Of a stretch of DNA of 32,000 bases, positions 13,227-16,612 are shown piece by piece. A program made the position numbers and the translations under genes. Under the pieces are notes generated by a model. That model saw only the letters and a list, made by a program, of their open reading frames with translations. It was not told the origin of the DNA and ran no database searches. Position 1 is the stretch's first letter. The number at the start of each line of letters is the position of its first letter. The stretch is from Candidatus Hermodarchaeota archaeon (GTDB lineage Archaea; Asgardarchaeota; Heimdallarchaeia; Hodarchaeales; Hodarchaeaceae): contig JBHLKY010000002.1 of NCBI GenBank assembly GCA_048886185.1, positions 120,001-152,000 on the forward strand, written 5' to 3'.

Positions 13227-13859
13227 CTAAATGATTTGTACCATTGATTTTAAGCCTTTCAATCTTAAATCTGGTTTTGAAGGGTTTTTAAAAACTCTAG
13301 AAAGTGATTTTCCCTTAATAGAAACAATGATTTCATAAGTTCCAGATAACGATGTAGTTTGTGAAAAAAACCTCGAAAACTTACTCGATATTAATTTAGT
13401 TTCAGGTTGAAGAGAAAAGACTTCAACTAACCCTTGGTTGGGATTTAACAATCGCTCAAATTTATTTTGTACTAGTTTGTGTCGTAATGAAGGAGCTGTT
13501 GTCATTCTCAATCTCTTTATCTGATCTTTCTTATCGTTTTCCTTGAGAAAAGAATATGTGATTACCATAGGTGTTTGTACAATTATATCAAACTTTTTTT
13601 CTTCTGATTGAGTATTGAAGACAAGAATTAATAACTCGAATTTATCTTCAACTCTGATTTCTTCGGGATAAAACAATCTGAACAGTACTAATCCATCTTT
13701 TTCAAATGAAGGAATTTTTTGATTGTTAAATTTTTGATACAATTCCATTGGATCCGTAGTTGATCTAAAATCTTTAAATAATTCAAACACCAAATCTACA
13801 CTCCTCATATTTATTTTGTTAATATTGGTAAAAATACAACTTATAGCTTTATAACTCAT
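13227..13859 (-). CDS. Hypothetical soluble protein, beta-rich C-terminal part, divergent from actin
   Basis: 210-aa ORF; an alternative start is TTG at 13793 after TGAGGAG. Contains strand-like segments FELLILVFN and GTYEIIVSI. Confidence 0.7.
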   Translation of the reverse strand: MSYKAISCIFTNINKINMRSVDLVFELFKDFRSTTDPMELYQKFNNQKIPSFEKDGLVLFRLFYPEEIRVEDKFELLILVFNTQSEEKKFDIIVQTPMVITYSFLKENDKKDQIKRLRMTTAPSLRHKLVQNKFERLLNPNQGLVEVFSLQPETKLISSKFSRFFSQTTSLSGTYEIIVSIKGKSLSRVFKNPSKPDLRLKGLKSMVQII

Positions 13860-13917
13860 CTGTTCAGTTAAGATAAAGCCCCCTAAAAAAGAATTGAAAT
13901 TACAGTTACAATAGTTA

Positions 13918-13937
13918 TTTTAAAAAATTTTATAACT
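13918..13937. promoter_or_regulatory. Candidate back-to-back archaeal TATA boxes
   Basis: TTTTATAA at 13928-13935 on + preceded by an A-run (BRE-like), and TTTTTAAAA on - facing the divergent gene. Confidence 0.4.
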
Positions 13938-13959
13938 ACTCTCCGCCTGCAAATGAATT

Positions 13960-14526
13960 GTTATACGAGTCATGTTAATTATTTCTCTTTCATTTGAATA
14001 TCTCCCTTTCACTTTTTCCTCCCTTCCCCATAGTTTTCATGCTCGCGACTGTAAATAGTGTTCCCGAATGTATCCCATCTCTGTCATTTTTCATCTCATT
14101 CTCCCAATATTTCCTTTGTTCCCCATCCATATGGAGGTCTCCTGTCCCCTTTCCCGTAGTGCTTCTCATTTCGAGTCTTCTCCTAACCATTTTAACTTTC
14201 CCCGCCTCTTCTCCGCGTGTTGTCCTCTAACACAAACCTGTGGTGTCTTCCTCCTCCCATATTCCCCCCGCAGTACCCTTTTGTTTTTCTATCTATTTCT
14301 ATCGGATGTGTTGGGTGTTTCCTCTCTTCCGTAACTCTACGGGTGGGGTTGTAATACCTCTTAAAAACAAAACCAAAGGTTTTTAAATCAACGGAGAAGT
14401 GAGGTACTTGCATACGCAAATTAAAGGCGTCTCCGCTAGTTAAGTGAAACGGTTACTGAGACGTTTTTAAATGATCATTTGTAAAGTGATCTTTTTCTAT
14501 CGACAATCATTTTGAAGTGATATAAG
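13960..14526 (+). ncRNA. Candidate long 5' leader or ncRNA upstream of actin
   Basis: About 73% pyrimidine over 13981-14340 by hand count (96 purines in 360 nt). Stems at 14329-14342, 14355-14406 and 14421-14470 (13 bp including two G-U pairs). No convincing protein is encoded. Confidence 0.4.
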
Positions 14527-15669
14527 ATGTCAGTTGCAGAAGGAATTACTGGTAAACCCCTGGTCATTGATAACGGCACAGGGTTAAGCAAGAACGGTTA
14601 TGCTGGTGAAGACCAACCCCGCTCGGTATTCCCCACTCTAATTGGGTACCCTAAATATCAGTCGATCATGTCTGATGTTGACCACTATGTTCGTGAGTAC
14701 TATGTGGGCGAAGAGGCCATGAATTTACGTGGTGTTCTCAAGCTCATTTACCCTATTCTTCATGGGATCGTTACCGATTGGGATGCTATGGAAAAGATTT
14801 GGCATTACACCTTTCATAACGATCTTCGGGTCAATCCAAGTGAACACCCGATTTTATTGACTGAAGCTCCTTTGAACCCTGGAACTAACAGGGAAAAGAT
14901 GGCTGAAATTCTGTTCGAGACCTTCAATGTCCCCGCTATGTATGTGTCCATGCAAGCAGTCCTTTCTCTGTATGCTTCTGGACGTACCACGGGATTAGTT
15001 ATTGATGCTGGTGATGGTGTTATTCATATTGTCCCTATTTACGAAGGTTTCGCGATCTCCCATGCTATTAGTCGTATTGACATTGCTGGGCGTGACATTA
15101 CTGAATATCTTCGGCGTTTATTACGGACTCGTGGGCGGGCGTTGACCTCCTCCGCCGAGAAAGAGATTGTCCGTGATATCAAAGAACGCCTCTGTTATGT
15201 CGCTCTTGATCCTGAGAAGGAATTGAAGCTGGCAGAGAAAGTCTCTGGTATGGAAAAGCAATACACTCTCCCTGACGGGGAAACTCTCACCATTGGTCCC
15301 GAACGTTTCTTGGCTCCCGAAGCTTTCTTCAATCCAAGTGCTCTTGGAAAAGAAGAAACGCCCTTGGATGAAGCCATCTACAACGCTGTCCAACTCTGTG
15401 ATATTGACCTCCGTAAAGAACTCTATCAGAACATCGTCTTGTCTGGTGGCTCGACCATGTTCCCTGGCTTGAAAGAGCGTCTTCACAAAGAGCTAACTGA
15501 ACTCGTTCCTGATAATGTTGAGATCCGTATCGTTGCTCCTCCTGAGCGCCGCTATTCTGTTTGGATTGGTGGATCGATTCTGTCCTCCCTCAAAACCTTC
15601 CAACGCCTCTGGGTCTCCCGTAAAGAGTATCAAGAACAAGGCCCAACCGTCATCAAGCGAGCTATCTAA
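14527..15669 (+). CDS. actin: Eukaryote-like actin (Lokiactin-type Asgard actin)
   Basis: Collinear with conventional actin: [96 protein letters not shown]-like site upstream. Confidence 0.98.
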
Positions 15670-15670
15670 G

Positions 15671-15705
15671 TTCCCCCCTTCCTTTTTCTCTTCTTTTTTT
15701 TTCTT
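15671..15705 (+). terminator. Strong polypyrimidine/U-tract terminator of actin
   Basis: 35 consecutive pyrimidines starting 2 nt after the stop codon. Confidence 0.75.
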
Positions 15706-15775: not shown

Positions 15776-16612
15776 TCAGAATTTCCCTGTTTCAACCCTT
15801 TTTCGAACACCAGTTTCTTCTTTTTTCTGATAGTAAATTCTTAAACAACACAAAACTGCAATACTGATAATCAGTTTTCCGAAACTGGCTTCATTATAAT
15901 ACATGTAACTAAATTGAACAATTAGTGAACTATGCATTATCATTGCAGTCAATAAATTTCTATCTGACAATACATAAATTGTGTCAATTGCAAAAGAAAA
16001 CACTATCATACTCAGATAAGAAAATATTGTGATTTCAATCCCATTTGCAATATTTATGGGGATATGCCATAACCACCACAAGTTTCCAAGAATAATACTA
16101 CCGAATATATGATTATAATTACTATGTAGTCTTTCAACAGCAAATCCTCTCCAACCAGGTTCTTCAAGGACTGGACTGCTTAATAATCCTGCAATTAATG
16201 TAATTGGCATTAAAAAAATGATTGTTATCCCTAATTCAGTAAGAACTTCTGGTTTAATGATTATAAAGGATTCATTCCAGCCAATCAATCGATCTATTAG
16301 ATTACCACTGATTGTAAAAAATGGTAATAAGCATGCAGCTATCACTAACCAGACTAGAATCTTAGCGTCTTTTTTAAATTGAATTTTTTGAAAAATAGAA
16401 TCTAAAGTGATCTGTTTATGAGTCAGTTTTTCAAGTATAAACAATGAAGCTAATACGCTAAGAGTACCTAAGAATTGGCCGATAATAATCGGGAGAGGAA
16501 AATTAATAATTTCTAAAGTATGGAGTGCCATTGGAATCCAAAATATCCACGCAATAAATAAAGCAAATGCAAAAAAAAAGAATGTAGGGTATTTTTCGAT
16601 TAATTTTACCAT
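15776..16612 (-). CDS. CPBP (Abi/CAAX protease-like) family intramembrane metalloprotease
   Basis: EEPGWRG, WWLWH and MHS motifs within TM helices. Confidence 0.92.
   Translation of the reverse strand: MVKLIEKYPTFFFFAFALFIAWIFWIPMALHTLEIINFPLPIIIGQFLGTLSVLASLFILEKLTHKQITLDSIFQKIQFKKDAKILVWLVIAACLLPFFTISGNLIDRLIGWNESFIIIKPEVLTELGITIIFLMPITLIAGLLSSPVLEEPGWRGFAVERLHSNYNHIFGSIILGNLWWLWHIPINIANGIEITIFSYLSMIVFSFAIDTIYVLSDRNLLTAMIMHSSLIVQFSYMYYNEASFGKLIISIAVLCCLRIYYQKKEETGVRKRVETGKF

Follow-up and report, generated by a model that had tools for sequence, protein, structure and literature searches.

Upstream of the lokiactin-type actin gene of a Candidatus Hermodarchaeota archaeon (order Hodarchaeales), within the 32,000-nt stretch of DNA analysed here (the window), lies a strongly pyrimidine-rich stretch at positions 13981-14340. 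By sequence comparison, its right two-thirds is the in-register homologue of a fixed-length module found upstream of actin in six species, and the rest is a species-specific left extension. The locus is most aptly viewed as an archaeal upstream control region in a new form, unusually large and constant in length, set beside tandem promoter candidates and a putatively structured leader. We put at about even the chance that the stretch acts as control DNA of fixed geometry ahead of the actin promoters and is itself not transcribed. That it is untranscribed, what binds it and how the module functions are matters that we infer, for a feature confined to a small clade.

The initial annotation had read the stretch as a regulatory leader or non-coding RNA (ncRNA) of ~570 nt, beginning after a TATA-like sequence at 13928-13935 and controlling actin. 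Its regulatory tie to actin has stood, in that the module travels with the gene in six species, and the comparison supports a functional link between stretch and gene. The RNA starting from 13928 has not fared as well, and the stretch is probably not part of a 570-nt mRNA leader.

Composition and extent of the skewed stretch

Pyrimidines make up 73.3% of 13981-14340 (A 14.7, C 32.5, G 11.9 and T 40.8%), as an earlier count of ~73% had indicated, and the reported enrichment in C is equally real (32.5% vs 18.7% for the window). Across 360-nt segments of the window, pyrimidine content averages 51% (standard deviation, SD, 4.9%) and reaches its maximum, 73.6%, at 13979. Genome-wide (4.84 Mb), 0.0075% of 360-nt segments are equally skewed, and 13981-14340 ranks second in skew once segments containing N are set aside. 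The two other extreme-skew regions examined encode small Lys/Glu-rich proteins on the purine-rich strand; unlike theirs, the skew of 13981-14340 has no conserved-coding explanation. Those two regions lie outside the window in the same genome, at C9:182787-183158 (+) and C17:112488-112796 (-). Their proteins, which start MSEKKLKEAEKKK... and MSERKYKEAEKLRK..., are probably coiled-coil and possibly paralogues.

The stretch occupies a gap free of open reading frames (ORFs) between the actin ATG (14527) and a divergent ORF, which at 667 nt (13860-14526) has the length first reported. Described then as exceptionally long, the gap is indeed long, and within the top 4.8% of 3254 ORF-free gaps it is not extreme. 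The pyrimidine-rich DNA is single copy in the genome. It is not an assembly artefact, given an exact match in a 44-kb contig of run X1 (possibly the source of this DNA) and contigs of run X5, from a different study, that cover 14023-14552. Its two parts are as follows.

14128-14378, plus strand: actin-linked upstream module, from CATATGG to AACCAAAG, 251 nt, kept in six species
13981-14127, plus strand: left part of the pyrimidine-rich stretch, species-specific, without homologue

The 150 nt to the left of the module are 75% pyrimidine in the window, and searches of 41 relatives and of the rest of the genome found no homologue of 13981-14127.

A fixed-length module kept with actin

Six species were compared: that of the window and those represented by G003, G008, G017, G014 and G010. 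DNA similarity upstream of actin extends to seven genomes, and BLAST recovers only ~14257-14526. From CATATGG to AACCAAAG, which abuts the first of two conserved TATA boxes (TATA box 1), the distance is 249-250 nt throughout the six species, at pairwise identities of 51-82% and with no more than one gap column. Every copy is pyrimidine-rich (59-67%, with 23-31% C); the base composition of the module is A 0.17, C 0.31, G 0.16 and T 0.36.

At four-fold degenerate sites of actin, the window and these species agree in ~50% of positions. Even the less conserved half of the module aligns in register, with identities of 0.40-0.47 between the window and each relative, vs 0.26-0.30 (SD 0.04) at shifted registers. 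Beyond the module (-650 to -401), ungapped alignment yields 28% identity, which is about chance, and the DNA cannot be aligned. The block common to the six species comprises only actin and ~400 nt upstream of it. Because the genes on both sides differ, the conserved unit is actin plus this ~400 nt, and the gene and its upstream region appear to have moved about as one unit.

Four blocks are invariant within the module: CATATGG, TCTTC, ATTTCTATCGG and CAAAACCAAAG. The positions of the third and of an inverted repeat are given below.

14295-14305, plus strand: ATTTCTATCGG, within the longest run of invariant module columns in the six-species alignment
14129-14138, unstranded: left arm of the inverted repeat, 10 bp, ATATGGTTCG in relatives and ATATGGAGGT here
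14253-14262, unstranded: right arm of the inverted repeat, 10 bp, CGAACCATAT in relatives and CCTCCCATAT here

The inverted repeat is the only robust structural feature of the module and holds the same position in all six species. Its left arm overlaps the invariant CATATGG (14128-14134), and in the window both arms are altered in ways that partly compensate each other. The arm centres are 124 bp apart, and 126 bp separate the right arm from the centre of TATA box 1; since the module has no indels, these spacings are fixed in all six species. Sense-strand TATA-like 8-mers are absent from the module in all six, and metagenome and genome collections yielded no further homologous modules.

Conserved promoter candidates downstream of the skew

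Only three TATA-like clusters occur within the 667 nt. They are listed here with the other elements between the divergent neighbour and the actin ATG, including a B recognition element (BRE)-like sequence.

13917-13935, unstranded: TATA-like cluster, A/T-only and partly palindromic, including TTTTATAA at 13928-13935
14371-14387, plus strand: distal promoter candidate P1, BRE-like AACCAAAGG followed by TATA TTTTTAAA (14380-14387, TATA box 1), genus-wide
14405-14412, plus strand: initiator-like ACTTGCAT, genus-wide, 22-30 nt past the start of TATA box 1
14427-14463, plus strand: hairpin GCGTCTC...GAGACG, ending at TATA box 2, genus-wide
14464-14471, plus strand: proximal promoter candidate P2, TATA TTTTTAAA (TATA box 2), TWTWTAAA kept across the genus
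14514-14521, plus strand: Shine-Dalgarno-like GAAGTGAT, 5 nt ahead of the ATG, with AAGTGA genus-wide

Core-promoter features are found at 14371-14412 and 14464-14471, namely conserved TATA boxes at fixed distances and, at box 1, the BRE and the initiator-like ACTTGCAT at the spacing expected of an initiator. The start of TATA box 1 is at -147, except in one of the six species, where it is at -143. The purine-rich BRE side of P1 faces away from actin, so that P1 should fire toward the gene; the box itself is near-palindromic and reads as TATA in both directions. TATA box 2 starts at -63 or -62 in all six species. Its BRE is poor, and its distance to the ATG is within the usual range for TATA-like boxes of this genome. 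Transcription from P1 is predicted to start at ~14410, a T/G step, giving a 117-nt leader, and from P2 at ~14494, giving a 33-nt leader. Since the conserved boxes and ACTTGCAT all lie downstream of the stretch, the predicted starts (-117 and/or -33) lie downstream of the skew.

The TATA-like TTTTATAA is present at 13928-13935, where it was first reported. Its cluster is ~60-75 nt from the ATG of the divergent neighbour and is most simply that gene's promoter. It also falls within non-homologous, species-specific DNA and has no fixed-position counterpart in relatives. Upstream of the module, no TATA-like box at a conserved position was found in the six species, and in G014 a sense-strand TATA-like 8-mer is absent altogether between -700 and -147.

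The hairpin folds at -13 to -20 kcal/mol in 19 of 19 sequences (genus genomes and close metagenome loci). The 3' arm (GAAACGRT..CTG) is kept, and changes in the 5' arm are compensating, the pairs being TTTCAC/GTGAAA, TTTCGG/CCGAAA and TTTCGCC/GGCGAAA. The region from -120 to -1 folds better than shuffled sequences on the sense strand only (z -1.5 to -2.7). Together, the hairpin and the strand-specific folding point to a transcribed leader from the distal promoter. The hairpin is likely a structured part of the 117-nt leader of actin, or else a palindromic operator for the proximal promoter. A C/D-box small RNA between the TATA boxes was considered and rejected: by eye, the box order and the terminal CUGA are missing, and a SNORD63 match is at chance level.

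Three copies of an (A/G)TGAT(C/A) word (ATGATC, GTGATC and GAAGTGAT) occur between TATA box 2 and the ATG. These words (14471-14491 and 14514-14521) complement the expected 3' end of 16S ribosomal RNA, and the ATGATC and GTGATC copies are kept in six sister species without a start codon after them.

RNA, coding and mobile-element candidates for the module

Several other identities for the module were tried and rejected. Against Rfam 15 (E up to 10) there were only chance-level matches far below gathering scores, none of them inside 13981-14310, and scans for tRNA and transfer-messenger RNA found neither. A structured RNA is disfavoured by RNAalifold: over 268 columns the energies are -9.8 kcal/mol for the sense and -11.2 kcal/mol for the antisense strand, and the covariation terms (-0.08 and +0.34, respectively) bring no gain. 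Single-sequence folding z-scores of the module run from -2.6 to +1.1 over both strands without a consistent sign. A module RNA of the kind originally envisaged would thus have no conserved or unusually stable fold on either strand.

A coding function fails because stops occur in every frame in some species and the module lengths are 249 or 250. Substitutions lack 3-nt periodicity (mismatches by phase 14/16/24, 14/16/17 and 14/11/19), and a search of 41 genomes found no homologue of either ORF in the stretch (66 and 88 aa). A minus-strand frame, GKGTAWVIWFEE..., seemed conserved in three close species; it contains stops, lacks codon periodicity and has no homologues. Plus-strand ORFs open from the invariant CATATGG in all six species. 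They range from 10 to 105 codons, the 88-aa one is without homologues, and stop-poor frames of this kind are expected in pyrimidine-rich DNA. A mobile element, a miniature inverted-repeat transposable element or parC-like iterons would not account for a single copy, with no direct-repeat family and an inverted repeat at constant position.

The actin gene, its pyrimidine tail and its neighbours

14527-15669, plus strand: actin (lokiactin-type) coding sequence (CDS), 380 aa, Pfam Actin E = 2.5e-133
15671-15705, plus strand: pure pyrimidine run, 35 nt, a C-run then T-runs including T5 and T9, 1 nt past the stop
13227-13859, minus strand: divergent upstream neighbour, 210-aa ORF, no Pfam family

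Actin protein identity is 97-99% within the 22-genome genus. The CDS had been called C/T-biased, which holds weakly for the whole (52.5% pyrimidine) and strongly for third codon positions (A 0.17, C 0.27, G 0.18, T 0.38). Among 2187 long ORFs, the pyrimidine content of its third positions (0.65) is at the 99.4th percentile and their C content (C3, 0.27) at the 99.9th; the genome mean C3 is 0.13. In 1143 nt the CDS has no T5 run and one T4 run, in a genome of 64% A+T. This synonymous composition and scarcity of T-runs are consistent with very high expression. Across 791 genes, C3 and upstream pyrimidine content are not correlated. Other high-C3 genes lack pyrimidine-rich upstream DNA, so the skew is not a general trait of highly expressed genes.

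The 35-pyrimidine tail is where it had been placed, at 15671-15705, on the same strand as the upstream bias. It is the longest pyrimidine run behind any of 3157 ORFs of at least 150 aa, and only 0.5% of long ORFs have a run of at least 25 within 60 nt of the stop. A C-run-then-T-run tail follows the actin stop in seven of seven sister species, and past it the DNA is unalignable. The run is likely a terminator or 3' end element. Uridine tracts are archaeal termination signals, including in the action of a Lokiarchaeota aCPSF1 (PMC7515710), and the actin tail, with T5 and T9, matches the U-rich 3' end signal of aCPSF1-dependent terminators (PMC7515710). The upstream stretch also has T5 runs, as in archaeal uridine-tract terminators; unlike those, it is C-rich as well, ten times longer and has no co-directional gene ahead of it in this genome.

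The downstream neighbour of actin (15776-16612) is a homologue of Rce1-like CAAX proteases. Neither this gene nor the divergent one (13227-13859) is beside actin in any of six sister species.

A candidate control region of fixed geometry

Short invariant blocks at fixed spacing, drift between them, no RNA signal and an adjoining BRE and TATA box are together best fitted by a protein-binding control region. Within the stretch, 14128-14340 (continuing to 14378) is this species' copy of a non-coding module kept with actin, whose sequence drifts at roughly the synonymous-site rate while its length stays constant, and 13981-14127 is a species-specific extension of like composition. Actin transcription would begin downstream, at ~14410 (with a 117-nt leader that includes the hairpin) and/or at ~14494 (with a 33-nt leader). 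The module itself could then serve as a fixed-geometry platform for DNA-binding proteins that set the activity of the actin promoters, namely a dedicated regulator that binds the repeat arms, or else positioned histones. Histones reportedly account for up to 21% of protein in strain HC1 of the Hodarchaeales (bioRxiv 10.64898/2026.07.02.735847), and histone-rich cells of this kind make positioned chromatin a candidate partner of the module. As for the skew, a division of the bases between the strands, pyrimidines on one and purines on the other, may keep AT-rich DNA free of cryptic TATA boxes near a very strong promoter, which would also fit an opposite skew at the same place in other lineages.

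Several points weigh against this interpretation. That the stretch is untranscribed is suggested solely by the location of the conserved promoter-like elements. A platform acting at the level of the duplex offers no obvious reason for a pyrimidine bias that keeps to one strand in six species, and a bias on the same strand as the 35-nt tail fits an RNA-level signal better. The invariant blocks of the module are not enriched elsewhere in the genome, where each has few copies, about the number estimated by chance for words of that length. No 10-11-bp dinucleotide periodicity (AA/TT/WW or SS) is detected in the six modules summed (z -1.5 to +1.8). T5 runs occur inside ORFs of this genome at 2.7 per kb, and being common there they do not exclude read-through. 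Finally, the six species are close kin, so the features they share are not independent observations. Six T5 runs occur in 13860-14526, and T7-T8 runs occur at -285, inside the module, in three relatives; among the T runs, only the latter carry some weight against read-through.

Alternative readings of the stretch

Is the skew itself of any consequence? It may be functionless, with only the promoter-proximal 150 nt mattering and the rest being drifted spacer or a decayed minus-strand gene for a charged protein. No homologue of the left third (13981-14127) turned up anywhere searched, substitutions in the less conserved half of the module have accumulated about as far as at synonymous sites, and the other extreme-skew segments examined are coding regions for Lys/Glu-rich proteins. 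In addition, the X5 contig over 14023-14251 differs from the window at 20 of 229 positions, without gaps, vs 1 of 316 for an overlapping contig of similar depth over 14237-14552. If both contigs represent one strain, divergence is much faster in the skewed stretch than in the promoter and leader, again without indels. Unconstrained DNA at such divergence should, however, gain and lose bases, whereas the module length is fixed within 1 nt and the DNA just beyond it is unalignable. The invariant blocks persist, as does the inverted repeat with its partly compensating changes, and neither a residual reading frame nor homologues were found. We consider a functionless skew unlikely.

A separate, unstructured ncRNA from the module, acting on the actin promoter either as an RNA or through its transcription, seems to us distinctly improbable. 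It could be a pyrimidine-rich sense RNA or a purine-rich divergent RNA running leftward from TATA box 1. The strand-consistent skew in six species would suit it, and constant length with drifting sequence is also known from some protein-binding RNAs. A leftward transcript could draw on the bidirectional TATA box 1 and would run into no evident stop before 13927, the minus strand of the module being almost without T5 in any species. That scarcity of T runs is, however, an automatic result of composition, and the BRE-like purine flank directs transcription toward actin rather than leftward. A sense RNA would need a promoter upstream of the module, where none is conserved. Neither strand shows conserved structure, covariation or stability, and no Rfam family matches.

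The long leader would start ~25 nt past TTTTATAA and place a pyrimidine-rich 5' untranslated region of ~570 nt ahead of actin for translational control or mRNA localisation. In its favour, the sense strand has a good TATA-like box at 13928, preceded by A-rich sequence. The skewed strand is the sense strand of actin, and its composition resembles that of the third codon positions of the CDS and that of the pyrimidine 3' tail; T5 runs are no clear transcription stop in this genome. This TATA cluster is, however, species-specific, in DNA without homologue and where the promoter of the divergent neighbour is expected; relatives have no fixed TATA-like box upstream of the module, and two conserved BRE/TATA boxes and ACTTGCAT are located between the stretch and actin. 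In three relatives, T7-T8 runs at -285 speak against read-through, and other high-C3 genes are without pyrimidine-rich upstream DNA, so that a transcription-linked composition effect would not be general. The comparative prediction of starts at -117 and/or -33, within ~120 nt of the ATG, likewise disfavours this leader, which we hold to be very unlikely.

Least probable of all, and hardly to be expected, is that the module is transcribed as an unstructured C/U-rich RNA (a leader isoform or an upstream RNA) and that one pyrimidine-tract-binding protein (KH/PCBP-like) recognises both it and the 35-nt tail, controlling actin mRNA stability, translation or placement, which, if true, would give the archaeal order nearest to eukaryotes a post-transcriptional circuit like those of eukaryotes.

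Other lineages and known systems

Upstream comparison across Asgard actins, a check proposed in the initial annotation, gives a divided answer: the skewed region recurs in six sister species, whereas several lineages have the opposite skew. Among 70 Asgard actin loci surveyed, the six sister species have in common a pyrimidine-rich sequence directly 5' of actin, and a few distant loci are also at least 62% pyrimidine upstream, in unrelated sequence. In several Asgard lineages, including two complete Heimdallarchaeum genomes, the DNA upstream of actin is purine-rich (pyrimidine 0.27-0.32; 0.28-0.29 over 250 nt in the two Heimdallarchaeum genomes). Heimdallarchaeum thus likewise has strongly strand-skewed DNA directly upstream of its lokiactin gene, but of opposite sign and without sequence similarity.

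Archaeal BRE/TATA promoters with upstream regulator sites are known, for example those with Ptr2, Lrp- or TrmB-type activator sites, and such sites are usually within ~100 bp of the TATA box. Like them, the actin locus has short conserved blocks and an inverted repeat upstream of a BRE and TATA box that face the gene, in a module that is non-coding and without RNA-fold signal. Unlike them, it has a strongly strand-skewed unit of fixed length (251 bp) followed by two tandem TATA boxes.

Two eukaryotic systems also bear comparison. The 5' terminal oligopyrimidine (TOP) motif consists of 4-15 pyrimidines from the capped first base, and to our knowledge archaea have no cap-dependent TOP pathway. 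As in 5' TOP mRNAs, sense-strand pyrimidine-rich sequence precedes a highly expressed housekeeping gene; the tract here, however, is 360 nt long and ends ~70 nt upstream of the first predicted start. In fungi, CT-rich promoter blocks (yeast glycolytic genes, the Aspergillus gpdA 'ct-box') span tens of bases between TATA and start. These resemble the present case in a C+T-rich coding strand, untranscribed or at the start site, at very strongly expressed genes. They differ in that the tract here is 250-360 bp long and upstream of the TATA boxes, and there is no sign of common descent.

Among archaea, Hodarchaeales are at present regarded as the nearest relatives of eukaryotes, and their hallmark cytoskeletal gene is actin. 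We found no paper on the promoters, start sites, leaders or expression control of Asgard actins; the Hodarchaeales isolate paper reports transcriptomes without a start-site map. The present analysis provides a map of the locus, comprising two tandem promoter candidates, a candidate structured leader of 117 nt, the 251-bp module and an exceptional pyrimidine 3' tail. Should the module prove to be transcribed, the earlier eukaryote-like reading would come back into play. If it is a control region that binds proteins, its size would be unusually great for an archaeal promoter, and it would offer a good entry point to the regulator of Asgard actin.

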